The translations under genes were made by a program, and so were the position numbers. From NCBI GenBank assembly GCA_965219095.1, contig CBDCMT010000001.1, forward strand, positions 1,568,001-1,632,000: a stretch of 64,000 bases of DNA. Reading direction: 5' to 3'. The notes under the pieces were generated by a model. The model was not told where the DNA came from, ran no database searches, and saw only the letters and a list, made by a program, of their open reading frames with translations. This DNA comes from Bdellovibrionales bacterium (GTDB lineage Bacteria; Bdellovibrionota; Bdellovibrionia; Bdellovibrionales; UBA1609). Of the stretch, positions 14,066 to 55,571 are shown piece by piece (positions within the stretch are counted from its first letter, which is position 1; each line of letters opens with the position of its first letter).

Positions 14066-14944
14066 TCAAGCTTTAATATCAGCTATTTTCTTCATCAATA
14101 AGGCCCCTGAGATTTGGAGAATCAACATAACAAAAAGTAGAATCCAGCCTAAGGTTGTCTGAAATAAAGGTCTAGCATAGGTAGGATTGGTAATAAGAAT
14201 AAGACCTAAAACAACAAGGGGAATCACTGATAAAATACGCCCCTGATTGCGACTTTGAGTCATCATTGCTTCAATCTTTTTTTGGATGCGACTTCTTTCT
14301 CTCAAGGTTTCTGATATGACATCAAAAGTTTCACTCATATTTCCTCCTGTTTCTTTAAGAATATTCACACCACTAACAAACATATGCATATCATATTGAT
14401 CGATCCTATCAGCCATTTCTTCTAAAGCTTCTTCTAAAGGCATCCCTAAACGAAATTTATTAAGGGCAAGTTGAAATTCTTGCCCTAAAGGCCCTCCTTC
14501 ATTCTTGATCACCCTCTCCATGGATTGAGATATAGATAAGCCACTTCTAACACCATTGCTTAAAATCACAAGGCTATCGACCATTTGTGAAACAATCTTA
14601 TGCGATCGTGTGATCCAAAGATTCTTCATTATGTTTCTAGGAATAATAAGACCTGCTAAAATCACAGGTACTGCTAAAAGAAGTCCTAAAACAAAGTTAG
14701 GTAGACAAAATAAAATGACAACAAGACCTAAACCATAACTAATAGACACTAAGCCAATAGTAAGTTTTCTGGAATCTATCTGTATAAGCATTTTATTCGT
14801 AATGGATGAAATTTCTTCAAATGTAAAAAGAAATTTCTTATGAAAAAAGTCAATGACTCTTTTGTTTAAGAAATAAACTGAAACAAAAACCAAAACTCCA
14901 AAAAATGTTACTGTTAAAAACTGACTTTCTATAATCCAACCCAT
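14066..14944 (-). CDS. tadB: Tad pilus inner-membrane platform protein TadB
   Basis: T2SSF domain (SGLS..., PLGQEF, ETGGNM); follows the TadA ATPase. Confidence 0.85.
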   Translation of the reverse strand: MGWIIESQFLTVTFFGVLVFVSVYFLNKRVIDFFHKKFLFTFEEISSITNKMLIQIDSRKLTIGLVSISYGLGLVVILFCLPNFVLGLLLAVPVILAGLIIPRNIMKNLWITRSHKIVSQMVDSLVILSNGVRSGLSISQSMERVIKNEGGPLGQEFQLALNKFRLGMPLEEALEEMADRIDQYDMHMFVSGVNILKETGGNMSETFDVISETLRERSRIQKKIEAMMTQSRNQGRILSVIPLVVLGLILITNPTYARPLFQTTLGWILLFVMLILQISGALLMKKIADIKA

Positions 14945-14947
14945 ATC

Positions 14948-17143
14948 CTACTTCCTTTCTACAACTGTTTTTTTCATACTTGAAGTATGTTCAGTATTTC
15001 TTCTGAGCTTCAAACCTTTTCTTAAAGATAAAGTTTTAGAAGGTCTTTTAACTTCTTCTACTTTCTCTCCTGTAAACAAATATCTTGGAATATGAATCCC
15101 TCGGTTTTCAAATTTTTCAATAAAAGTAGGAATGGCTCCTGTGGCCTGAAATTGCCCTAAGATTTTTCTGTTTTTATCAAAGCCCTCTTCTTTAAAACGA
15201 AAGACTTCTTGTAAAGTGAGTACATTCGACTGTATGCCTGCAACTTCTGTGATGTTAGTGATTTTACGACTTCCATCAGAAAGACGTGAGATCTGTACAA
15301 TCAGTTGTACCGCTGAGCCAATTTGTTCTCTTATAGCCTTTACAGGAAGTTCTAAACCTGCCATCATAGAAAGATTCTCTAGACGGGAGGTGGCTTCTCT
15401 AGGGGAATTAGCATGAACTGTTGTCATGGATCCATCATGACCTGTGTTCATCGCAGAGAGCATATCCAAGGCAGCACCATCACGACATTCTCCTACAATA
15501 ATGCGATCAGGTCTCATTCTCAGACTATTTTTAACTAGGTCCCGAATGGTAACAGCACCAGCATCTTCCATATTTGCCGGCCTTGTTTCTAACCGAACCA
15601 CATGCCCTTGAGCTAGTTGTAATTCTGCTGCATCCTCTACAGTGACAATTCTTTCATTAGCAGGGATATAGCTTGAAAGTAAATTTAAAAGAGTGGTTTT
15701 ACCAGAACCGGTTCCTCCTGAGATGATAATGTTCAAACCCTGTTCTACACAAATTCTTAAAAAATCCAACATAGGTTTTGTTAAAGTGTTCCAATTCAAA
15801 TACTTGTCTGACGTTACTGTTTCTTTTGCAAATTTACGAATGGTAATGGAAGGGCCGTCAATTGAGAGGGGTTCGATGATAGCATTGACTCTACTACCAT
15901 CAGAAAGCCTTGCATCTACGTAGGGAGTTTTTTCATCAATCCTTCTTCCTAAAGGAGTTACAATTCTTTCTATAATGTTTCTTAATTGAAGATTTGATGT
16001 GAAATTCATTTTTGTCAAAATCAGCTTTCCCTTTTTTTCTACAAAAACTTTATCACAACTATTTACCATAATTTCAGTGACTGTGGGATCACTTAAAAGT
16101 TCTTCTAAAGCACCTAAACCTAAAGCTTCATCTAAAACTTGTCGTATGACAAGAGTTCTTTCAGAGCGTGAAAGTTGTGGTGCTTGTTTTGTCACAATTT
16201 GACTGATCGCTCTTTGTGTCTTCTGTTCTAATTCTTTTTCTTTCTTAGGGTCTCCTTTGGTATTGGTTAAATCTTTTCTTAAATCAATTTCACGTATGAG
16301 TTCCTTGTGAATCATTATCTTTAAATTTTTTAAAAAATCTATAGATTCTGATTTTTGCGAAACAGAGAGAGGCTTTTTTTTCTCTCTCTGCTCTAACTTC
16401 TGTAAAATGCCTGAAGTTAAATGTCTTACAACTTGATGATAAGCTCCTATAAGAGCAACAGCCTGCCTCTGTAAAACAAAGGGAGTGCTAGTTTTTATAG
16501 CTTGTGAGGTAATAATGTCATCTTGAGGTAAAGAAGCTAAAACAGGCCTTTTTAAAGTTTGTGAAAACTGTTCTTGTGTCAGATCTCTTTGAGAGTATTT
16601 GTTCAAAACAAGAAAGAACATATCATTTGCAAACATAAAATAACTTAAATCATTCATCTTCTTTCTTGTTTGGTGAAGACATAGAGAGTCTGGATGAGAG
16701 ACTACAAGTCCTATAGTAGCTTCATTGAGTAGTGTTTTTTGTGCCTCTCCTAATTCATGACCTATATCTACAATAATGTATTCGTAATAAGATTTAAGAC
16801 TTTTGAGTTTATTTACTAAAAGTTGGCTTTCAACTTGTGTTTCTTCTTCAGGGTTTAAAATTAAAGGTAAATAATTTAACCCCGTAGAATGTTCATAAAT
16901 AAAGGTCTTCAATCTTTTTTCATCTAATGGACCTGTCCATTGCAAAAGTTCATCTAGTTTTTTCTTAGGCCTAGCTCCTAAAAGAAACGTTAAGTCACAA
17001 GCCGACTGTTTGTCTAAGTCCATAAGTAAAACAGAAGATTTGGTTTCAATCTTCATAGCACAAGCTAAATTAGTGGCAAAAACACTTTTACCTACACCTC
17101 CCTTGCCGCCTAAAATAGCAATGACAAAACTTTGTTGAAACAT
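14948..17143 (-). CDS. tadA: Fused CpaE/TadZ (MinD-like) and CpaF/TadA pilus assembly ATPase
   Basis: N-terminal GGKGGVGKS domain; C-terminal GGTGSGKTT, LRMRPDRIIVGE, MNTGHDGSMTTVHAN. Confidence 0.9.
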   Translation of the reverse strand: MFQQSFVIAILGGKGGVGKSVFATNLACAMKIETKSSVLLMDLDKQSACDLTFLLGARPKKKLDELLQWTGPLDEKRLKTFIYEHSTGLNYLPLILNPEEETQVESQLLVNKLKSLKSYYEYIIVDIGHELGEAQKTLLNEATIGLVVSHPDSLCLHQTRKKMNDLSYFMFANDMFFLVLNKYSQRDLTQEQFSQTLKRPVLASLPQDDIITSQAIKTSTPFVLQRQAVALIGAYHQVVRHLTSGILQKLEQREKKKPLSVSQKSESIDFLKNLKIMIHKELIREIDLRKDLTNTKGDPKKEKELEQKTQRAISQIVTKQAPQLSRSERTLVIRQVLDEALGLGALEELLSDPTVTEIMVNSCDKVFVEKKGKLILTKMNFTSNLQLRNIIERIVTPLGRRIDEKTPYVDARLSDGSRVNAIIEPLSIDGPSITIRKFAKETVTSDKYLNWNTLTKPMLDFLRICVEQGLNIIISGGTGSGKTTLLNLLSSYIPANERIVTVEDAAELQLAQGHVVRLETRPANMEDAGAVTIRDLVKNSLRMRPDRIIVGECRDGAALDMLSAMNTGHDGSMTTVHANSPREATSRLENLSMMAGLELPVKAIREQIGSAVQLIVQISRLSDGSRKITNITEVAGIQSNVLTLQEVFRFKEEGFDKNRKILGQFQATGAIPTFIEKFENRGIHIPRYLFTGEKVEEVKRPSKTLSLRKGLKLRRNTEHTSSMKKTVVERK

Positions 17144-18634
17144 CTAGCCCCCCATTTTAAATTTATCTTTAATTGTTTCTACACCCTCGCTAGCTGAGGT
17201 TTTAATGCGAGGTGTGATGAAAATAACAAACTGTTCGTTTCGTTTATTATAACCTTTTGAAGTGTAAAGACTTAAAACAGGATTCGCAGAAGCTGATTCT
17301 GGAAGTTTGTTAAAATCCACAATGCGAGAACTATCCACTAAACCTCCTACAGCAACACTTTGGCCATTTCTCACCACCATTTCAGATTGCACTTGATTTT
17401 TTGAAACAATGGGGACTCCCCGAGCTTGACCTGTAAAGTGACTGCTCGAAAACCTCATTTGCATGGAAACACTGTTATTTCTATTTCCCACAATGGTCGG
17501 AGTCACTTCTGAACTCACTCCTGCGTCTGCTGTATGAGTGATTAAAGTTCCATTAGGTCCTCCTGTTTGATAGGGTACTTTTGTAACAGATTCTAAAACA
17601 CCCTTTTTTCCTTCTTCTACTGTTAAGCTTGCACTCTGCAAAACCCTAGCATAACCATGCTCTTTAGCCCAATTCAATTTGGGTAAAAGATTAGAAATAG
17701 TAGCCGTCAGTTGACTTACAAAACCTCTTTGCTCTTGATTTTGACTAGGAAGGCCTATAGTCAACTGTGTCTCATCAGAAATTCCTGGAGTCCATTGAAA
17801 ACGAAAGCTCTTATTAAAATCTTTTTTCATTTGTACAAAATGTATAACAAGGTGAATAGCTTTTTTAGGATCAGGTGTAGGTCTTTTTTCAATAGTGATC
17901 ATATTAATGATTTGATTTCTGTTTCTGGCTTTGACTTTTGCTCCAAAAGCCTCCTCTAAAACAAGATCGGGAATATAAGCTAAGGCAATGGTTTCAATGT
18001 CTTTTCTCTTACTTACTAAATCCACTGAGCCTTGTAAAATAAAGTTTCCGTTCACTGTACGAACTGTAATGTTAGAAGAGATTCTTTGAATTTGAGAATC
18101 TGATTGAATGAGACTAGCAATTTTTCTTTCCGCAATAGGGTTTAAAGACACTAAAGAGGTAGCTTTATCAGGGTATCTTTGAAGTACGTTATAAATACGT
18201 GTTATCTCTTGAGGTAGAAGCACGTAGCCATCTAATAAGACTTTATTGTTTAAAATTTTAACACTTACTCCATCAATATCTTGAATTAAGCTTTTGATCT
18301 CATGAGCTGTTTGAATTAAGTTTGTCTTTTGTATACTTACATGAAACTCATAGATGATCTTTCCTGTTTTACGATTTTCTATCAAAAAAACTGTGGTTCC
18401 CTCTTTTTTAGGTTTGAACCGAAAAGTCCTTTTCTTTGCTGAATAGCTTACTCTTAAAAATTTCCTCCAAGATCCTGAAGTTTTAAAACTCCTAGGAAGA
18501 CCTTCTACGATTTCATCATGGTCAAGTCCTATATAAAGATTTAAAAATCGTTTAATTCTTTTAGAATCATCAGCCCATAACTCAAAAGTAAAAAAATTCA
18601 ATAAAGTTAACAATAAAAAAATTTTCATCATCAT
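17144..18634 (-). CDS. cpaC: Tad pilus secretin (CpaC/RcpA-like) with BON-like domains
   Basis: Signal peptide; secretin C-terminus GQSVAVGGL...VIFITP; operon context. Confidence 0.78.
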   Translation of the reverse strand: MMMKIFLLLTLLNFFTFELWADDSKRIKRFLNLYIGLDHDEIVEGLPRSFKTSGSWRKFLRVSYSAKKRTFRFKPKKEGTTVFLIENRKTGKIIYEFHVSIQKTNLIQTAHEIKSLIQDIDGVSVKILNNKVLLDGYVLLPQEITRIYNVLQRYPDKATSLVSLNPIAERKIASLIQSDSQIQRISSNITVRTVNGNFILQGSVDLVSKRKDIETIALAYIPDLVLEEAFGAKVKARNRNQIINMITIEKRPTPDPKKAIHLVIHFVQMKKDFNKSFRFQWTPGISDETQLTIGLPSQNQEQRGFVSQLTATISNLLPKLNWAKEHGYARVLQSASLTVEEGKKGVLESVTKVPYQTGGPNGTLITHTADAGVSSEVTPTIVGNRNNSVSMQMRFSSSHFTGQARGVPIVSKNQVQSEMVVRNGQSVAVGGLVDSSRIVDFNKLPESASANPVLSLYTSKGYNKRNEQFVIFITPRIKTSASEGVETIKDKFKMGG

Positions 18635-18684
18635 CCTCTTTTGTGTTTTTTGAGGTCTTCATCTCTTTAACAGTCTCTTTACAG

Positions 18685-19566
18685 TCATAAATCAATAAAA
18701 GGACCTTTCTTTTTCTTAGAAGGAGCAATACGTGCTGGTTTTAAAATTTTTCCTGAAATTCTGCGAGATGCTTTTTTTACTTCTTTCTTAAAAGATGATC
18801 TTTCTAAAACGGTATCTTGGGTGGTCACACTGAGACTGTTGAGTTTTGTGTCTGTAGGGTGTCTTAGGGTTAAAAACAAAGAAGAGGGTGAGGTTGCTAA
18901 AATGTAAATAAGTTTTTGACTTTCTACAGGTGTTACCTCTAAAGTCAAATTAGAAAAACTTGTGTCTCCTCGCAAACGAAAAGTTCTTATGCCGTTCCTT
19001 TGTTCTTCTTGTAAAGCAGGCAGTTGGTTTGTGATACGAAAACCTGTGGCCAACACCACAACATTTTGAAGAATCGTTCTAACTATTTTTGTTTTGTTTA
19101 AACCTTTTCCTACTTCAATGGCTGATAAAACATCCACACGATCCCCAGGAACAATCAACTTACCAATTCCTCTTATATCATCCACAGGTACTGTCACAGC
19201 TCGTCTCTCAGGGGTTACTTGTATGGAAAGACCTGTTATTTTATCAGGGGGAGAAAGTTTATTAGATAAAATTTCCTCTCCTTTTCGAATAGGAGCTAAA
19301 GCCACATATCCTATCACTTCCTCAGGAGAACGAACAGCTTTAGGTTGGAGAAACTCTACAGGTTTTTCTCTCACCTCCAGCATCGTCTCATTGATTGTCC
19401 GCATTTCCTCTATATCTTGTAAAGCCACCACTACACGCTGTTTAGTGCCAAACTTTTGGGATAAAGCTTGAGATTTCTCATTAGTGTAACTGTAAAGTAA
19501 AAACATAGCTAACAGGCCGGCAAATACAGCCACCCATAAAGTTCTTCCCTCTTGAAATGAATTCAT
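18685..19566 (-). CDS. cpaB: Flp pilus assembly protein CpaB/RcpC
   Basis: SAF domain, RAVTVPVD..G..LIVPGDRVDV, ILQNVVVLA, TLEVTP. Confidence 0.9.
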   Translation of the reverse strand: MNSFQEGRTLWVAVFAGLLAMFLLYSYTNEKSQALSQKFGTKQRVVVALQDIEEMRTINETMLEVREKPVEFLQPKAVRSPEEVIGYVALAPIRKGEEILSNKLSPPDKITGLSIQVTPERRAVTVPVDDIRGIGKLIVPGDRVDVLSAIEVGKGLNKTKIVRTILQNVVVLATGFRITNQLPALQEEQRNGIRTFRLRGDTSFSNLTLEVTPVESQKLIYILATSPSSLFLTLRHPTDTKLNSLSVTTQDTVLERSSFKKEVKKASRRISGKILKPARIAPSKKKKGPFIDL

Positions 19567-19613
19567 AAAGCTTTTCCTTTCTTTTTTCCTTTTTTCAGGC
19601 CCTTAGGCCAGAA

Positions 19614-20129
19614 TCAATCTCCACAACCAGAGTGAAGGCAAATACCATAAGCCACCTTAGACCACACAGGGTTCACTCCTTGTTTGCTGTATCGGATTCT
19701 TGTTTGAATATCTTGATACAAAGTTTCATTATGATAAGCGGAATCAGGCTCTTGAAGGTCTTCAGAAACTATACCTAAGTTAAGAGAAATATACTGATAA
19801 GGTGCATGAAATACGTTAGAAATACCTTCTCTCTCTTCTCCATCGATTATAGCATGAAACCGAAAACCTCGGTTGTAAAAATGTGTGATTCTGTCTCTAG
19901 GAACATCGATTCTAAAGTACTGCAGATGAGTTCTGTGACGAAACGTCTCATAAGCATAAGCTCTTGCCCCTATACTGTTTAGAGTTGCTGAATGTAAAAT
20001 ACCCCAAAAACCAAACAAAAAACTTGTTATAGCGACAAAAAGAATCAAAAAAGCAGCAAGTTCAATAGTAGCAAAACCTTCTTGTTCTTTTCCAGAATTC
20101 TTTCTTTGCCTCTTATACATCTTTAACAC
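19614..20129 (-). CDS. TadE/G-like minor pilin
   Basis: G-FATIE prepilin motif followed by hydrophobic helix. Confidence 0.65.
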   Translation of the reverse strand: MLKMYKRQRKNSGKEQEGFATIELAAFLILFVAITSFLFGFWGILHSATLNSIGARAYAYETFRHRTHLQYFRIDVPRDRITHFYNRGFRFHAIIDGEEREGISNVFHAPYQYISLNLGIVSEDLQEPDSAYHNETLYQDIQTRIRYSKQGVNPVWSKVAYGICLHSGCGD

Positions 20130-20737
20130 CCATTATCCCCATAACTTTGAGGCAAATTCTGTATAGAATTTGAAAAAGAAAATCTCCTTACAATCTCTTC
20201 ATACCTTGAACGATGAAAGTCTTGACACTCCTTTTGTGTTATCTCTCTTCCTAAAAAACTTCTTATCTCCGTTGTAAAACCATCATGTTCAAGGTTAGTT
20301 AATCCTAAGAAGGGGATATTAAAACTTAAGATGGGAGCTCTAAAAGTAAGCCACAGGCCTATGAAAATATCTTTTTTTTGACTCCTTCCCCCCACATCAG
20401 AACCCTCAAACCTCTCTCGCAGACCTGTTCTCACACTTCCTCTTTCGATTTGAAACCATCCGTTACTTTTGAAAAAAGGATTTAAAACAGAGCTTTCTAA
20501 AAGACGTGTAACTTTATCAAAAGCTAATTTATTTTGATCTTCTGGTGTATGATGGCTTGCTAAGTAATGTCTTGCTCCTGCGTAAGTGATGTATTGAGTA
20601 ACTTCAATAACACTTAAACAAAAAGCAAAGATGATAAACAAAAAAAGCAAGAAAAAAGCAAGTGTAAAAGCATAAACTACATCAATAAAAATCATACCTC
20701 TTTGATTGAAGAGAGGATTTGTTTTTTTCAAATTCAT
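20123..20737 (-). CDS. TadE-like minor pilin
   Basis: NQRG-MIFID motif, hydrophobic helix, YAGAR. Confidence 0.62.
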   Translation of the reverse strand: MNLKKTNPLFNQRGMIFIDVVYAFTLAFFLLFLFIIFAFCLSVIEVTQYITYAGARHYLASHHTPEDQNKLAFDKVTRLLESSVLNPFFKSNGWFQIERGSVRTGLRERFEGSDVGGRSQKKDIFIGLWLTFRAPILSFNIPFLGLTNLEHDGFTTEIRSFLGREITQKECQDFHRSRYEEIVRRFSFSNSIQNLPQSYGDNGC

Positions 20738-20976
20738 CGAACATCGTCTCCTTTTTGTGATAAGTGGTTATGAAGATAGTTAGGATGCTTTCTCCTCTCT
20801 GTCCATTCTCCATTCCTTACCATATGATCTAAACGGATCAATGGCTCTCTTACTATACGATTTAAAAATTCATTAGCGTCTAAGGCTCCCACCACAGCTC
20901 TAAAAAGTCCTAAGAAAATTAACATAATTAAAATCGATTCTAAAACAGCCTGACCTTTTTTATTGATGAACTTCAT
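20734..20976 (-). CDS. Small TadE-like pseudopilin
   Basis: KKG-QAVLE motif; likely start MKFINKKG. Confidence 0.65.
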   Translation of the reverse strand: MKFINKKGQAVLESILIMLIFLGLFRAVVGALDANEFLNRIVREPLIRLDHMVRNGEWTERRKHPNYLHNHLSQKGDDVR

Positions 20977-21484
20977 AAAACACCTCTTGTATTGATAAGA
21001 ATGTAACTTAACCAACCCATAAGAAAAGGAAAGCTGAAAGGAATTCTATGAGCTTTTTCTGGATTTAAATAAAAATTCATGTTCACTAAGTTTTTTAAAA
21101 AGACTTTCAAGTTTTTTTGAAACAGAATAACAAAAAATCCAAAGACAAAAGCCCAACATAAACTGTAAACAAAGGTCTCTAAAACAAGCACTCCATGATG
21201 AAGAAAACCAAAAACACTAAAAAACTTCACATCTCCTCCTCCTAAGCCTCCTATAAGATAAAGAGGAGAAGTGCATAGAAAAGCTATGCTGAAACCTAAA
21301 AAACTCTCTATGAAAAGTGTTTTCTGTATTTTAAAATCTAACCCATATACTTTAAAAAGAAGAAGGCTTAAAAACACAACAAAACTTATCACAACAAATT
21401 GGTCTGGTATTTTTTTTGTTTTTATGTCAAAAAAAAACCTATCAAAAGAAACATACTTGTCACAGAGAATACAATAAAACTCAT
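20973..21484 (-). pseudogene. cpaA: A24 prepilin peptidase CpaA/TadV, frameshifted at a T9 run
   Basis: GGGDVK and IPFS motifs; DIKTKKIPD (first catalytic Asp) is in frame with the body but out of frame with the ATG at 21484. Confidence 0.78.
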
Positions 21485-33420: not shown

Positions 33421-33764
33421 TCTAGCAAAAAGAAAACATGGATGATTTTAGGATGTCCGGCAAGGCTATCTGATTGATATAAATATACTTTATATAATAC
33501 TGAAGATTCTTTGAATTCAAATTAAGGAATAATTTTTCCAAAAAGTCTTAAAATGATACAGTTTAAGAGGGTTAGAATCTTCTTAGTTTTTGGCTTTTTC
33601 TTTACAATTGATTGGGAAATTTTTGTTACTAAAAATAAATCATAAAAATTTTAGTAAAAAAGGCTAGTTTTGTTTCAAAAAAAAACAATTGCTTAATAAA
33701 AAGTTAATATTCATGTTCAAAAAAGTTTTTACAGAGTATAATTAAGGCTGGAGGCTTTTGATTT

Positions 33765-36700
33765 ATGTTCTTAAAGCAAAGAGGAGTTTTCTTAATAGAA
33801 GCACTTGTGGCTATTTTAATTTTGGCATTTGTAGCTTTAGGTTCTGTTGCTATTATTCTTTACGAAGAGGGAAATACAGCGAAAATAAAAAATCAAATTT
33901 CTGCACAAAATTATGGCTTGGTTGCTATGTCTCATCTTGTGTATGAGGATATCTGCACTCAAACTTTGACTGGTAAGGATTACCCTCTTGATGGTTTAAA
34001 AGTTGATGTTCCCGAACTTTTATCTTTCGATCTTGATCCTTCAGACTCAGTCTTACCTCGTACCATTTTAAAAAGTGGCGAGAAATACGGACATGGTTCT
34101 TCTGAAATCAAGGTGGAAGAAATGTTTATAAAAAATATTTCTGGAGATCTGGATGGAAGTCAAAACACCATTTGTGAATCTTTACCTTTGAATGTTCAGG
34201 AAAAAAGAACAGCTGAAAAGATCGTACATCCTCTGAAATTAAAAAAAGAACAAATCGTAGTACTTAAAGTCAGCACAAAAATGAAGTCCCTTTCTTTGGG
34301 TACTAACCATACGTGTGCGGTTTTAGGAGATGGGGGCTTGTGGTGCTGGGGGGAAGGAAGTGAGGGTCGTTTGGGAAATGGAGACACCTCGGAACAAGTT
34401 TATCCTGTATCTGTGAAAAAAGAAGATGATAATGATTTAAAAAATGTTACTGAAGTTTCTGCAGGCGATAGCCATACATGTGCGGCTTTAGGAAATGGAG
34501 AGGCTCGGTGCTGGGGGGACGGAGCTCAAGGTCTTTTAGGGGATGGAAACATTGGTTTCGATAAATCTCATCCTGTGGCTGTTAAATCTGTAGATGGTTC
34601 TGGATATCTGAAAGATGTGGTCTCTATTTCTGCAGGCCGTTATCATACTTGTGTGATTTTAGGAGATGGAGAGGCTCGGTGTTGGGGTAATGGAAGTGAT
34701 GGCCGTTTAGGAAATGGAGGCTCTCTCCTTCAAAGTCGTCCTGTGCGTGTGGAAGAAAGCCCTGGAGTGCCTTTAAAAAATGTTGTTTCTATTTCTGCAG
34801 GAGGTAAACATACTTGTGCGATTTTATTAGGTGGAGAGGCTATGTGTTGGGGAGATGGATTTTATGATCAGTTAGGGGATGGAGGTAATTCCGACCAAAC
34901 CCTTCCTGTGCGTGTGGAAGAAAGCCCTGGAGTGCCTTTAGAAAATGTTGTTTTTATTTCTTCAGGTGAGAACCATACTTGTGCGATTTTAGTAGGTGGA
35001 GAGGCTATGTGTTGGGGACTTGGATCGAGTGGTCAGTTAGGAAATGAAAGTTTTAACAATGAAAAACATCCTGTAGCTGTTAGATCTGAATATGGTCCTG
35101 GAAATTTAAAAAATGTGACCTCTATTTCTGCAGGCTATGAACACACTTGTGCGGTTTTAAGAAATGGACAGGCTCGGTGTTGGGGAAAAGGCCATAAGGG
35201 TCAATTAGGAAATAATACGTACGGCGATGAGCTTCGTCCTGAACCTGTGAAAAATAAATTGGGTACAGACAATTTACAAAATGTCATTTCCATTGTTGCA
35301 GGTGAGTATCATACGTGTGCAATTTTAGTGAGTGGACAGGCAGTTTGTTGGGGAGAGGGAGACAAAGGTCGTTTGGGAAATGGAGATACCTCTCCAAAAA
35401 ATCTTCCCGTAGTTGTTAGAGAAAAAGGAGGAGCTGAGCCAGGACTTAATTTAACAGAAAATGTGCGTGATATTTCTATAGGTGATTTTCATACTTGTGC
35501 AGTTTTAGTAAATGGTCAAGTACGGTGTTGGGGACAGGGAGCTAATGGTCAGTTAGGAAATGGAAGTACCTCTATCATAAACAGTCTTCCTGTGGCTGTA
35601 AGAGATGAAATGGGTAGAGGAAACTTAAAAAATGTACTTAAAATTTTTTCAGGCCATTATCATACCTGTGCAATTTTAGTAAATAGAAAGGCTATGTGTT
35701 GGGGATTGGGAACGAATGGTCAATTAGGAAATGCAGATAACTCCGATCAAACCTATCCTGTATTTGTTAGATCTGAAAGTGGTCCTGGAAAGTTAAACAA
35801 TGTTATTTCTATTTCTGCAAGCCGTTCCTATACCTGTGCGGTTTTAGGAAATGGAGAAGCTCGGTGTTGGGGTAATGGAAGCAATGGTCGTTTAGGAAGA
35901 GGCACTTCCAGCAAAAACCGTCCTGTGGCTGTTAAGGCTGAAAGTGGTTCTGGAAATTTACAAAACGTGGCCTCTATTTTTGCAGGCCATCATCATACCT
36001 GTGCAGTTTTAGTCAATGGAGAGGCTCGATGCTGGGGACTGGGAAGGAATAGTCAGTTAGGAAATGGAGCTAAACCTAACATACAAATTCGTCCCGTAAT
36101 AGTAAAGAAGAATGCTTCTGATCATTTGAAAAATGTGGCCTCTATTTCTGCAGGACAGAATAATACCTGTGCAATTTTAAGAAATGGAGAGGCTATGTGT
36201 TGGGGACTTGGAGGGTGGGGTCAGTTAGGAAATGGAGACACCTTGGAACAAGAATATCCTGTATCTGTTAAATCTTTAGATGGTTCTGATAATTTAAAGA
36301 ATATTGTCTCTCTTGCTCAAGGTTGGTTCCATACCTGTGCAGTTTTAGTCAATGGAGAGGCTCGATGTTGGGGGAGAAGAAATCAAGGTCAATTAGGAGA
36401 TGGTATTATTTCTAACGAGTCATCTTTGCTACCTGTAGTTGTAAAAAAAGATGGTAATCCTTTACAAAATGTGGTCTCTCTTTTTGCAGGCCATTATCAT
36501 ACTTGTGCGGTTGTGAGAGATGCGGATGCGTATTGTTGGGGTAATGGAACTCGGGGCCAGTTAGGGAATGGAGATACTTCTACGGAAAAATCTCTTGTGG
36601 AAGTAAATTTAAGTGAAGAAATTATCAATTTAAAATTTTCAACAAATAGTTTTGGAGTAGGAGCTTCACATGCTTGTATGATCCTCAACAATGATCAAGT

Positions 36701-39311
36701 GAGTTGTTGGGGACAGGGAGCTAGTGGTCAGTTAGGAGATGGAGGAAGTGGTGCAAATTATCAAAAACTTCGTCCTGTGATTGTGGAAGTAAGTCTTGGA
36801 GTAGCTTTGGAAAATGTCGTCTCTCTTGCTGTAGGCGATCATCATACCTGTGCAGTATTAGAAAATAAAGAGGCATGGTGTTGGGGACAGGGAGCTAGTG
36901 GTCAGTTAGGAGATGGAGGAAGTGGTGCAAATTATCAAAAACTTCGTCCTGTGGCTGTTAAGGCTGAAAGTGGCTTAGGACACTTAACAAATATTACTTC
37001 CATTTCTGCAGGCTATGCTCATACTTGTGTAGCTTTAGAAAATGGAGAAGTAAGGTGTTGGGGGGATGGAAGTAGTGGTCAGTTAGGAAATGGAACCCCT
37101 TCCAACCAAAACCGTCCTGTAGCTGTTAGATCTGAAAGTGGTTCTGGAAATTTAGAAAATGTGGTCTCTCTTTCCGCAGGCTATAGTCATACTTGTGCTC
37201 GTTTAGGAAGTGGGGAGATACGATGTTGGGGGAGTGGAAGTAGTGGTCAATTAGGAAATGGGAGTAGTACTGACCAATCTCGTCCTGTGGCTGTTAAGGC
37301 TGAAAGCGGTCCTGCAAATTTACAAAACGTGTTTTTTATTTCTGCAGGAAAAGAACATACCTGTGCAGTATTAGAAAATAAAGAGGCTCGATGTTGGGGA
37401 AAAGGTGATAAAGGTCAATTGGGAGATGCAGGTGTTTTAACTCAAACTCGTCCCGTGGCTGTGCAAGAATACGAAAATTCTATAGGTTCTGATCTAGAAA
37501 ACTTGAAAAAAGTTATTGGCATTTCTGCAGACCGTAGTCATCATACATGTGTTCGTTTAGAGATAAATGGTGGTAAAGAAGAGATAAAATGTTGGGGAGA
37601 GAACAATGTTTTTCAGTTAGGAAAAAGAAATGTTAATTCCCTAAACATTCCTTTTGATTCTGTCGTAGGGGAAGATGAAAGTCCCTTTAAGAATCGTAAG
37701 GATGGCAATGGAAAACTTTATTTAGGAGAAGGTTTGTCCTGTGTTTCTTATGATCCTGATCCTCAACTTGATCCTGATCCTCCTGATTCTCGCCCTAACA
37801 ACTTATACTGTTGGGGAAAAGTTAAAGATGACAGCTATAATGATAACATTCCGTATGTTCGTAAATTAGACATAGATCATCAATATCATACTGCCACATT
37901 AGTAAGTACTATTAATATTACACCACAGTATATAAGGCCTCAGATTTCTATAGGTGAAAAGCATACTTGTGCTCTTTTAGATCACAAACCTTGGTGTTGG
38001 GGAAAGGATGATGAAGTTCTCTTAGGAAGATCATCTTCTGGAGATGGAAACAAACCTCAGTCTGCGGATGAAGTGGATACTTTAGATAACTTTTTTGAGA
38101 TTGTTTCAGGAAGTGAACATACTTGTACTCTTTTCAAAGAAGGTAGTGATCATGGTGGTAAAGTGAAATGTTGGGGAAAAGGAAGTAGTGGTCGTTTAGG
38201 GAATAATGCTTCATCTGACAGTTCTGAGCCTCAGTTTGTGGTAGCTACAGGAGGATCAGGGGAACTTACAGATGTAGTTTCTATTGTGGCAGGTGAGAAT
38301 CATACCTGTGGTCTTCTTGATACAGGAGAGATGGTTTGTTGGGGGAAAAATAACGATGGCCAATTAGGAGATGGAACAAATGTTGATAAAATGAGCCCTG
38401 CTTATGTAAAGGTGAGTGATTCTGAAAATTTAGAAAATATCATTCAAATAGCAGCAGGACATAACCGTACTTGTGTTGTTTTAAATGACTTAACAGCTAA
38501 GTGCTGGGGATTAGGTTTGACTGCATTGTTTGCTGACAACACCTCTATGATTAAAGGTGCTAACTCTAGGACCTTAAGTTCTGTTTTAGATGTATTTCCT
38601 TCTTCTGATCATACATGCACCCGTATCTTGCATGTTTCAAGTGATAACAGGGAAAGAAAAAAAGTCTTGTGCTGGGGAAGCTCTGTTCCAGGAGTGAACT
38701 CTAGTTTTGTAGCAGATAATCCTCAATTCACTCAAGTTTCGGATCCTGATGAAGAGATCGATCAAATCTTTTTAGGCACCTCTCATATATGTGCCCTAAA
38801 ACAAAAGGAAGTAAGTTGCTGGGGAAGAAATAATCATTATCAAGCAGGCGAAATAAGTGATCTTTCATCTCCTAAAGTGGTTTCAGAGCTTTCTTCGGGA
38901 GTTCATCAAATCGCTTCTGGATTTAATCACAATTGTGCAATCAAGGGAGAGAAGATCTTATGTTGGGGTAAAAACAGTGACGGCCAGTTGGGAGATTTAA
39001 GCACGGATAACAATCACATTCCTGTAACTGCTTTTTTTACCTGTTCTTTCAGAGGAATCTTATTTACAATAATTATGAAAAAAAAGGAAAGTATATTTTC
39101 TTTAGGACAAACCTCTGAGGTGGAGTTTTCACGCCCTCTTAATATAGCTATAAGAATTAATCCCGATGGTAAAGAGGTCATTGACAAGTGTATAGGGTTT
39201 AGAGATAAGCATGTTATGGGCAAGGAATGCACAGGATCAAATTCATTTGCCATGGGTTTTGATGAGTTAGGGCAACCTATTTGTAAAAAAATATGGAGTA
39301 ATGGACCTTAA
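33765..39311 (+). CDS. Giant prepilin-signal protein with 28 RCC1/BLIP-II-like repeats
   Basis: KQRG-VFLIE N-terminus with hydrophobic helix; 28 HTC...CWG...GQLG units counted. Confidence 0.88.
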   Translation: MFLKQRGVFLIEALVAILILAFVALGSVAIILYEEGNTAKIKNQISAQNYGLVAMSHLVYEDICTQTLTGKDYPLDGLKVDVPELLSFDLDPSDSVLPRTILKSGEKYGHGSSEIKVEEMFIKNISGDLDGSQNTICESLPLNVQEKRTAEKIVHPLKLKKEQIVVLKVSTKMKSLSLGTNHTCAVLGDGGLWCWGEGSEGRLGNGDTSEQVYPVSVKKEDDNDLKNVTEVSAGDSHTCAALGNGEARCWGDGAQGLLGDGNIGFDKSHPVAVKSVDGSGYLKDVVSISAGRYHTCVILGDGEARCWGNGSDGRLGNGGSLLQSRPVRVEESPGVPLKNVVSISAGGKHTCAILLGGEAMCWGDGFYDQLGDGGNSDQTLPVRVEESPGVPLENVVFISSGENHTCAILVGGEAMCWGLGSSGQLGNESFNNEKHPVAVRSEYGPGNLKNVTSISAGYEHTCAVLRNGQARCWGKGHKGQLGNNTYGDELRPEPVKNKLGTDNLQNVISIVAGEYHTCAILVSGQAVCWGEGDKGRLGNGDTSPKNLPVVVREKGGAEPGLNLTENVRDISIGDFHTCAVLVNGQVRCWGQGANGQLGNGSTSIINSLPVAVRDEMGRGNLKNVLKIFSGHYHTCAILVNRKAMCWGLGTNGQLGNADNSDQTYPVFVRSESGPGKLNNVISISASRSYTCAVLGNGEARCWGNGSNGRLGRGTSSKNRPVAVKAESGSGNLQNVASIFAGHHHTCAVLVNGEARCWGLGRNSQLGNGAKPNIQIRPVIVKKNASDHLKNVASISAGQNNTCAILRNGEAMCWGLGGWGQLGNGDTLEQEYPVSVKSLDGSDNLKNIVSLAQGWFHTCAVLVNGEARCWGRRNQGQLGDGIISNESSLLPVVVKKDGNPLQNVVSLFAGHYHTCAVVRDADAYCWGNGTRGQLGNGDTSTEKSLVEVNLSEEIINLKFSTNSFGVGASHACMILNNDQVSCWGQGASGQLGDGGSGANYQKLRPVIVEVSLGVALENVVSLAVGDHHTCAVLENKEAWCWGQGASGQLGDGGSGANYQKLRPVAVKAESGLGHLTNITSISAGYAHTCVALENGEVRCWGDGSSGQLGNGTPSNQNRPVAVRSESGSGNLENVVSLSAGYSHTCARLGSGEIRCWGSGSSGQLGNGSSTDQSRPVAVKAESGPANLQNVFFISAGKEHTCAVLENKEARCWGKGDKGQLGDAGVLTQTRPVAVQEYENSIGSDLENLKKVIGISADRSHHTCVRLEINGGKEEIKCWGENNVFQLGKRNVNSLNIPFDSVVGEDESPFKNRKDGNGKLYLGEGLSCVSYDPDPQLDPDPPDSRPNNLYCWGKVKDDSYNDNIPYVRKLDIDHQYHTATLVSTINITPQYIRPQISIGEKHTCALLDHKPWCWGKDDEVLLGRSSSGDGNKPQSADEVDTLDNFFEIVSGSEHTCTLFKEGSDHGGKVKCWGKGSSGRLGNNASSDSSEPQFVVATGGSGELTDVVSIVAGENHTCGLLDTGEMVCWGKNNDGQLGDGTNVDKMSPAYVKVSDSENLENIIQIAAGHNRTCVVLNDLTAKCWGLGLTALFADNTSMIKGANSRTLSSVLDVFPSSDHTCTRILHVSSDNRERKKVLCWGSSVPGVNSSFVADNPQFTQVSDPDEEIDQIFLGTSHICALKQKEVSCWGRNNHYQAGEISDLSSPKVVSELSSGVHQIASGFNHNCAIKGEKILCWGKNSDGQLGDLSTDNNHIPVTAFFTCSFRGILFTIIMKKKESIFSLGQTSEVEFSRPLNIAIRINPDGKEVIDKCIGFRDKHVMGKECTGSNSFAMGFDELGQPICKKIWSNGP

Positions 39312-39436
39312 AAATAGTGTTTTATTTCCTAAATTCGAGATAAATTTTACTCACTAGGATTTTCCATTCTAGGTCACCTCAAAAAAACTCCATTTCTATA
39401 GGGAAATACAGGAATTTTCAATCCAAAGAAAAATAA

Positions 39437-39650: not shown

Positions 39651-39884
39651 ATGTTAGTTCTTACAAGGAAAGTTGGCGAAACTTTGATCATTGATGATAA
39701 CATTAAGGTTACTGTTGTGGACATTAGAGGAAAGCAAGTACGTATTGGTATTGAAGCACCCTCTCATGTGTCTGTAAACAGAGAGGAAATATTCAAAGCT
39801 CTTCAAAAACAAAACAAAAAATCAGCACAAACTGATCACAAACTTCTTACTGAAATTACAAAAAAACTGGATGAAATATTTTGA
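39651..39884 (+). CDS. csrA: Carbon storage regulator CsrA
   Basis: [14 protein letters not shown]...[14 protein letters not shown]. Confidence 0.96.
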
Positions 39885-51829: not shown

Positions 51830-54828
<2,999 letters not shown>

Positions 54829-54979
54829 CATTAAAGTTTTCATAAAAATCTTTTTCTTAATAAAAAGATCAGGAGACTAAGAATGAATTGAACTTGTTAA
54901 AAAAAGATATCTTAGAGCTAAGATATCTTTTTAAAAGAGTTTTTAAATTTTTTATTCTATTCGTAATAAAGTTAGTTTT

Positions 54980-55095
54980 GCTGGTGTTGAAAGCGACAGG
55001 GGTACACTTGATTCCATTCCGAACTCAAAAGTTAAGTCTGTCAGCGACGATGGTACTGCAGGGGCGATCCTGTGGGAGAGTAGTGCGATGCCAGC
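54980..55095 (+). rRNA. rrf: 5S ribosomal RNA (ends approximate)
   Basis: GCTGG...CCATTCCGAAC...GATGGTACT...GGGAGAGTAG...CCAGC. Confidence 0.95.
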
Positions 55096-55571
55096 TTTTT
55101 TTTATTTTTTCCTTTTTGTCTTAAATTTTTGTTCAAATAACCTAGACTAGAAAGGCTACAGTAACTGTCTGTAGATAAAATCAAATGATCGATAAAATGA
55201 ATCCCCATAAGTTTAGCTCCTTCTTGAATTCTAATCGTTACCTCAATATCTTCTAATGAAGGTTTGAGGCAAGAAGAAGGATGGTTATGAGCTACTAGAA
55301 AACAAGAAGCATTTTTCTCTATGACTGTTCGGAAAAGGTCTCTGGGATGAAAAAAACAGCTATCAACAGTGCCTTTAAAAAGCTTCTTAAGTCCTAAAAC
55401 ATGGTGAGAAGGGCCTAGGGCTATAACCCAGAACTCTTCTACTAGAGAGGAGATATAAGGTTTTAAGAGCAAAAAAGCTGTACTACTTGAAGAACAAATC
55501 ACAGGTTTTTTTCTCACATTTACTTTAAGCTTTGTTTGTATATCTCTATTTTTTATATTTTGAAAGTTCAT
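55041..55571 (-). CDS. RadC-like JAB domain protein
   Basis: EEFWV, GTVD...HPRD, AHNHPS..PS.ED, DHLI. Confidence 0.85.
   Translation of the reverse strand: MNFQNIKNRDIQTKLKVNVRKKPVICSSSSTAFLLLKPYISSLVEEFWVIALGPSHHVLGLKKLFKGTVDSCFFHPRDLFRTVIEKNASCFLVAHNHPSSCLKPSLEDIEVTIRIQEGAKLMGIHFIDHLILSTDSYCSLSSLGYLNKNLRQKGKNKKKLASHYSPTGSPLQYHRR

Follow-up and report, generated by a model that had tools for sequence, protein, structure and literature searches.

The question raised by the open reading frame at 33765-39311 (+) of the window (the whole stretch of 64,000 nucleotides analysed here) is how a protein that starts like a type IV pilin and continues as a long RCC1 array is built, and what it may do for the bacterium. 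The frame is uninterrupted (1,848 aa, no internal stop) and is the longest ORF in the 3.11-Mb, 34% GC genome. On sequence grounds it is well supported that a type IV pilin-like protein is encoded, the head of which is split by an array of 28 RCC1 repeats. It is designated as the split pilin below, and its features are collected in Table 1.

Table 1. Features of the split pilin gene (window positions) and the appended pilin-RCC1 fusions of relatives
Feature	Position	Strand	Basis
Upstream region, likely promoter and ribosome-binding site	33639..33764	+	in common with insert-free paralog P0003: blastn 70% over 332 bp including 5' coding part
Basic leader of 7 residues, the last a Gly; PilD cleavage predicted at G|V	33765..33785	+	sequence; PilFind motif (PMC3244431)
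Pilin N-half, aa 8-158: hydrophobic alpha1 with Glu+5, Cys64, first head strands, Cys137	33786..34238	+	P0003 match; profile aa 2-129, E 3e-11; only strong hydrophobic segment
Linker from head into repeat array, aa 159-173	34239..34283	+	missing from paralog; P0039 and P0042 exit at same point
RCC1 repeats 1-7, predicted propeller 1, aa 174-567	34284..35465	+	one-stretch UVR8 alignment; linker break after 7
RCC1 repeats 8-14, predicted propeller 2, aa 568-960	35466..36644	+	repeat register; divergent allele starts here in two runs
RCC1 repeats 15-21, predicted propeller 3, aa 961-1391	36645..37937	+	repeat register; repeats 19-21 irregular
RCC1 repeats 22-28, predicted propeller 4, aa 1392-1758	37938..39038	+	repeat register; most diverged
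Pilin C-half, aa 1759-1812: Cys1760, last head strands, family-conserved Cys1809	39039..39200	+	P0003 match; second-half profile 22.7 bits
C...GF..G..IC module (Cys1822, Cys1840) and stop	39201..39311	+	same module after head in paralogs P0006, P0007
Pilin with single C-terminal RCC1 propeller, PilX2-like	L072:1162-2859 (566 aa), L075:328-2256 (643 aa), L096:171-2144 (658 aa)		

The N-terminus reads MFLKQRG|VFLIE and continues with 21 uncharged residues. By the PilFind rule (PMC3244431), a signal consists of [GAS]-x4-[DE] within 35 residues and then 14 uncharged residues. Such a class III motif is formed here by G7-VFLI-E12 and the 21 uncharged residues, by which the class III signal (KQRG|VFLIE plus a hydrophobic helix) of the original prediction was confirmed. 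The signal is non-canonical, with Val at +1 and Phe at +2, and the split pilin scored below the cut-offs of Pfam N_methyl (16.3 bits vs 21.2) and TIGR02523 (22.5 vs 52.2), whereas N_methyl was passed by the paralog P0003 (21.8) and by the relatives P0039 (28.1) and P0042 (25.6). With its 1,848 aa the protein lies outside the simple-pilin length filter of PilFind (<350 aa), and the head without the insert has about 245 aa. A single N-terminal hydrophobic helix was found (Kyte-Doolittle peak 3.07), the other peaks (1.9 and 1.7) lying within predicted strands. The N-terminus belongs to a widespread prepilin-type family and is no plain anchor, in agreement with the original prediction. The pairing of pilin and RCC1 as such is already in print.

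The reading of this region was checked against Logan contigs from four runs of one study, possibly the source. The signal and both head/array junctions were read by these contigs: 33500-34768 was covered by a contig of run X1 and 38906-39352 by a contig of run X3, each with 0 differences from the window, the two ends being covered separately and no contig running across the entire gene. An assembly chimera or an error in the signal peptide was ruled out by these contigs. The frame without a stop and the read junctions bear out the claim of an intact gene over 5.5 kb. At 33783-33800 the GVFLIE codons resemble the canonical GFSLIE altered by a compensating pair of one-base shifts, and they were read as in the window by three sequencing runs.

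A split head is supported by a paralog in the same genome, P0003 (245 aa, G000:C2:2221069-2221806), without an RCC1 insert. Residues 5-159 of P0003 match 4-158 of the split pilin (40%, E 8e-29), and residues 158-241 match 1762-1846 (39%, E 5e-14), with no gap on the P0003 side. Since both ends are matched contiguously, about 1,600 residues separate two pieces of the split pilin that are adjacent in the paralog. The two genes also have about 120 bp of upstream sequence in common. Between them, dN and dS were 0.43 and 0.93 for the N-half and 0.40 and 1.12 for the C-half (dN/dS about 0.46 and about 0.36, respectively), so that both halves diverged alike and under constraint. A relative with the same ends and no insert, proposed earlier as a check, was therefore at hand in the same genome, and the non-repeat N-part (about 173 aa, previously estimated at ~170 aa) and the Cys-containing tail (about 90 aa with the Cys motifs quoted before) were recovered as described. 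P0003 is the first of three pilin-like genes of one family (245, 243 and 359 aa) at L001:10070-12697 (G000:C2:2221069-2223699); it evolves fast, has Ser in place of Cys64 and has gained a Cys at 185.

The assignment of the tail was examined with a profile of the second half of the head, built from 154 rows of other genomes and scored global-in-profile. The split pilin reached 22.7 bits for the segment ending at Cys1809. The next site scored 14.2 and the best of 200 shuffles 15.5; the N-side window and closure at Cys1760 scored 6.5 and 9.4, respectively. Family members scored above 31 bits, by which the tail is read as a diverged family member. The sole match in the split pilin by a HMMER second-half search (1790-1809) was not significant, and neither was the hhalign comparison of the C-half with the family (about 1%). 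The family profile from 53 heads of other genomes covers residues 2-129 (E 3e-11) and then stops, and a profile containing P0039 and P0042 was stretched over 2-194 alone. Cys64 is conserved in the family. The alignments A4 and A9 pair a nearly invariant family Cys with Cys204 of P0003, and A6 and A7 place the last strands of the family on P0003 136-185. Thus, the earlier description of a pilin scaffold with a huge inserted multi-propeller is supported by P0003, by the second-half profile on the tail and by the prepilin-type N-terminus, the propellers themselves being predicted.

P0003 was modelled with AlphaFold2 on A9 (58 rows, chosen among alternative alignments, to which the model leans) at a pLDDT of 71, with a helix at 10-69, strands to 125, a low-confidence loop, and strands at 158-169 and 182-192. 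The insertion point falls at the end of this loop and the start of strand 158-169, where the loop has only 8-17 residues in 128 of 139 family heads. By VIA, pilins or pseudopilins took 8 of the top 13 rows; the best was XcpV (Z 5.3, rmsd 2.9, 82 aligned, on both sides of the insertion site), followed by EpsI (4.8), GspI (4.6) and ComZ (4.0), all of them weak with Z <8. No match was given by Foldseek at E 0.001, and in the ESM Atlas P0003 was nearest to N_methyl clusters (0.95). The model weakly indicates a fold nearest to GspI-type pilins. It also supports a position of the RCC1 array between strands of the head sheet, a placement that is based on P0003 and differs from the last strands given by A6 and A7. 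An intein as the insert was ruled out by eye, as neither a Cys/Ser start nor a His-Asn end, which mark inteins, is found at the junctions.

Within the insert, 28 CWG motifs were counted at residues 194-1733, exactly the number given by the original prediction, and Pfam RCC1 (PF00415), RCC1_2 (PF13540) and WD40_RLD (PF25390) were above their cut-offs. Repeats 1-7 align in one stretch with the entire UVR8 propeller (4dnv 9-364, E 4e-42). A terminal L-x-N-[VI] linker motif is kept by 16 of repeats 1-18 and is absent only after 7 and 14, for which precise pair the chance is 1 in 153. Irregular linkers had been expected after repeats 7, 14 and 21; the breaks after 7 and 14 stood, whereas that after 21 is less clean, being the longest join (76 aa) among irregular neighbours. 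Repeats 19-22 and 25-28 are all irregular, as are most joins from repeat 19 on. From the UVR8 alignment, the linker breaks and the seven-repeat offset of P0039 and P0042 described below, the 28 repeats likely form four 7-bladed propellers. A single-sequence AlphaFold2 model of aa 966-1848 was of low confidence (pLDDT 33). Each blade carries a Cys pair. Repeats 1-19 are about 40-60% alike, all vs all, with no identity peak at distance 7, by which the array would have grown blade by blade; duplication of whole propellers inside the gene was ruled out by the lack of a peak at distance 7 or 14.

Contigs of runs X2 and X3 diverge from the window allele near 35457, where repeat 8 begins, and continue in different repeat-like sequence; both alleles occur in run X2, and 35711-36313 is without cover in run X3. 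These departures hint at allelic exchange of propeller 2. At the DNA level, two free-standing RCC1 genes elsewhere in the genome, one of them 7 kb from P0003, are 65-71% identical to the array. These two genes (G000:C2:2228803-2230281 and G000:C1:263980-265428) are near-identical to each other, with signal-peptide-like starts and six CWG repeats, and in both a 19-residue unit is repeated in tandem, differently in the two genes. In the ESM Atlas the whole split pilin was nearest to Saccharibacteria RCC1 clusters (0.90, at a low recognition score and as a lead only).

RCC1 repeats were found in 2 of 147 other representatives among the matches listed, P0039 (1,643 aa) and P0042 (1,337 aa), both of which are single ENA metagenome records that terminate within a repeat and cover the first head half and the array only. 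They share the invariant Pro156 and exit the head there, their repeats starting some 20 residues later, and neither has a second head half before its array (best 10.7 and 12.1 bits, respectively). The array of P0039 opens with 14 homogeneous repeats, which are followed by a block of 7 and by 3 repeats plus an incomplete fourth. That of P0042 opens with 7 repeats, followed by the same 7 as in P0039 and by 3 and a part, the offset being exactly seven repeats. In a midpoint-rooted tree of N-halves (25 rows), the split pilin and P0003 were sisters (98/92), joined by P0039 and P0042 (98/92), with a long branch for P0003 (1.3) vs a short one for the split pilin (0.28). As P0003 nests among array-bearing proteins, parsimony makes it likely that the array was ancestral in this four-protein clade and was lost by P0003. 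Cys137 is apparently matched by Cys in P0039 and P0042 (by eye) and replaced by Gly in P0003, which also lacks Cys1760; a Cys137-Cys1760 staple across the insert is therefore possible.

Searches for further close relatives returned little. By word-index search, the query alone was recovered with split pilin 1-170 (among 515 candidates) and with P0007 (among 229), and only P0042 and P0039 were recovered with P0042 20-195 (among 405). P0003 alone as query matched 1 of 41 genomes, its own. With the clade profile A5, no close member was found in 109 family, 384 order and 401 phylum genomes, nor among the matches listed from genome and JGI contig scans.

The wider family is far more common. A profile of six related proteins of the genome was matched in 88 of 100 genomes of the same family, chiefly across the N-terminal part and up to 15 times per genome, and a five-row profile matched 478 of 1.84 billion representatives at E 0.001, the best 150 of which were examined. 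RCC1_2 was present in 49 of 100 same-family genomes, and most of their RCC1 proteins have signal-peptide-like starts (by eye). In 40 RCC1_2 regions, taken from 150 of 607 matches, 41 RCC1 frames were found with repeat counts clustering at 6-7 and 13-14; three of them begin with a pilin head, in each case a complete head followed by a single propeller. A 2,712-aa non-pilin frame with 28 RCC1 repeats was seen in a relative (L060:5589-13724). By eye, the same pilin head carries other appended cargo in relatives (L008, L019, L037-L056), namely S74-type fibre tails, a Hint-like domain and Cys-rich repeats, and two further family pilins (L002:7145-7954 and L003:6838-7530) have intact heads, one with a terminal collagen-like GPP repeat (Pfam Collagen). 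By their sequences, the pilin heads with appended cargo look like an undescribed family of modular adhesins.

The gene is solitary between IS remnants and csrA and lies outside any pilin operon, csrA being directly 3' on the same strand (window 39651-39884). IS66 occurs in the window and one IS66 transposase start has 41 copies in the genome; of the window, 40% recurs elsewhere in the genome, vs 0% of the gene. Open frames for PilD (PF06750), PilB (TIGR02538, over cut-off) and three secretins are present, as are full-length ORFs read by eye as PilT, PilC, PilS/R, PilM-Q and PilA. The genome also encodes another PilB/GspE-type ATPase and another long secretin, and it has a Gsp-like pilin cluster. 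Apart from these, a Tad/Flp pilus cluster with RcpC and a secretin lies at window 14066-21392, its start cut by IS66 and a ParA-like domain fused in it to a TadA-type ATPase in one 731-aa frame. Genes for 23S and 5S rRNA lie at window 51831-55096 with no adjacent 16S match in the window. Elsewhere, an integrase-like ORF directly follows a pilA-like gene (G000:C1:411277-413237, by eye), and the start of a 1,703-aa ORF (G000:C1:614688-619799) resembles Cas9-type RuvC-I motifs.

From these data the following course is considered probable. The protein would be inserted by Sec and cleaved by PilD after Gly7. Once in the periplasm, its two halves would refold oxidatively into one pilin head around the insert. 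A Cys64-Cys1809 bond would close this head across the insert, Cys137-Cys1760 would staple the points where the insert leaves and re-enters it, and Cys1822-Cys1840 would form a disulfide in the tail. It would then be assembled first in a type IVa pilus, and only at the tip because its bulk would block subunits above it, so that the four propellers could bind prey or host surfaces via variable loops on their faces. Specificity may be changed by gain, loss or exchange of whole propellers. Display on a pilus as an adhesin is inferred from the precedents of PilX2 and ComZ, and a tip-adhesin function is plausible by this analogy.

Four other explanations were weighed. The split pilin may cap a T2SS pseudopilus or remain membrane-bound, with the propellers as an envelope scaffold, a substrate adaptor or a released exoprotein. 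The GspI-type pseudopilins as the best fold matches of the P0003 model, the second ATPase, secretin and Gsp-like cluster, the non-canonical signal and the about 170 kDa of propellers that would have to pass the secretin speak for it. However, that fold is common to GspI, PilV and small T4P minor pilins (Table 1 of PMC7248040), the GspG/H/I/J-like genes form a separate cluster in which the family profile matches the helix only, and the S74 fibres and the single propellers that this head bears in relatives are cargo typical of surface adhesins; we regard this explanation as unlikely. Quite improbable is a head that was complete or dispensable before the array, with the repeats appended as in PilX2 and the tail as a duplicated half-domain of its own, folding independently of the N-part. 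The three same-family fusions are all of the appended type, and A6, A7 and one HMM alignment put the family strands on residues 136-190, but the score of the N-side window is inside the shuffle range (mean 3.8, max 15.7), closure at Cys1760 falls well below the tail, and the tail has the family-conserved Cys and the same next module as intact paralogs.

A non-functional or decaying chimera formed by recombination would be in keeping with the IS66 copies in this IS-rich genome, with the identity of the array to the free-standing RCC1 genes and with the lack of a close relative in the order and phylum genomes. It was judged very improbable against 5.5 kb without a stop, dN/dS <0.5 in both halves, the short branch of the split pilin vs P0003 and two distant relatives in which the architecture begins alike. 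RCC1 effectors of Legionella are translocated by Dot/Icm and act on the host GTPase Ran, and the original prediction had drawn this comparison. It proved not to be relevant, since only the repeat family is in common; an N-terminal pilin helix would hold the protein in the bacterial membrane or filament, the Cys pair per blade suggests oxidised extracytoplasmic folding, and RCC1 proteins of same-family genomes mostly start like exported ones. A host-cell effector acting on Ran is hardly credible here. The tip-displayed pilin with four propellers is preferred to all of these.

The closest functional precedent is PilX2 of TM7x (Nanosynbacter lyticus), a minor pilin with one predicted C-terminal 7-bladed RCC1 propeller (PMC11623550, PMC12206443), the deletion of which was reported to lower host binding from 10.6% to 4.6% (PMC12206443). 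In both proteins a pilin is joined to an RCC1 propeller, but PilX2 has one propeller after the pilin module and no predicted PilD signal, whereas the split pilin has four predicted ones inside the head and a PilFind-type signal. The PilX2-type layout, a single propeller C-terminal to an intact head, is absent here, with 28 repeats and head sequence on both sides. In construction, ComZ (Thermus thermophilus) and GspK of the T2SS are nearer, having domains inserted in the sheet and placed at the tip (PMC8179133, PMC7248040), as is predicted for the split pilin. Their inserts, a beta-solenoid or an alpha-domain, measure a few hundred residues (the whole ComZ chain has 518 aa), in contrast to about 1,600 RCC1 residues that vary by whole propellers and have a natural insert-free paralog. 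By analogy, the split pilin would function like PilX2 and be built like ComZ at several times the size, as a member of neither family.

Modular pilins are common, with >1,200 proteins and 264 architectures reported (PMC8179133). The first sheet of Dataset S1 of that work gives six pilin-RCC1 architectures of one protein each with <=5 RCC1 matches, rows that state nothing on insertion. PilB of Streptococcus sanguinis is alike in that a functional module is grafted on a pilin for display, in its case C-terminally (PMC8179133). The repeat motif is shared with UVR8, the HERC2 RLD and RCC1, from which the split pilin differs by the Cys pair per blade, the tandem array and the predicted export on a pilin, and giant RCC1-only proteins have been described in Oscillospiraceae (10.1101/2023.11.21.568195). 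The MAT fibres of Bdellovibrio bacteriovorus, with a constant anchor, variable tips and a proposed role in prey recognition (PMC10769870), are surface proteins, and pilin-family relatives carry S74-type fibre tails (by eye); MATs are trimeric fibres, and the word pilin is absent from the main text of that paper. The open-access literature searched described neither an RCC1 array within the head of a pilin nor this pilin family. Each element has precedent (ComZ/GspK inserts, PilX2 and the three appended fusions), while the combination is without precedent in that literature.

A broader proposal is offered tentatively, as one that is possible but on balance doubtful. The split pilin would found a clade of giant split pilins, and a disulfide-stapled loop of their head would serve as a slot that takes whole RCC1 propellers as cassettes, with gain, loss or exchange in steps of seven repeats. 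The slot would hold three or four propellers in relatives, none in P0003 and a divergent second propeller in co-occurring strains. The head would tolerate a 170-kDa insert, and the clade would provide Bdellovibrionota with a recognition repertoire at the pilus tip, alongside that of the MAT fibres. The range of pilin design, with appended modules and modest inserts as its present examples, would be widened to a predicted insert of four propellers, with a bearing on what a secretin can pass and on the engineering of pilus display. For the family, the finding points to a large undescribed group of pilin heads with swappable cargo, and for Bdellovibrio-like bacteria it provides a concrete candidate tip adhesin that may act in the recognition of prey or host, with P0003 as its natural control.
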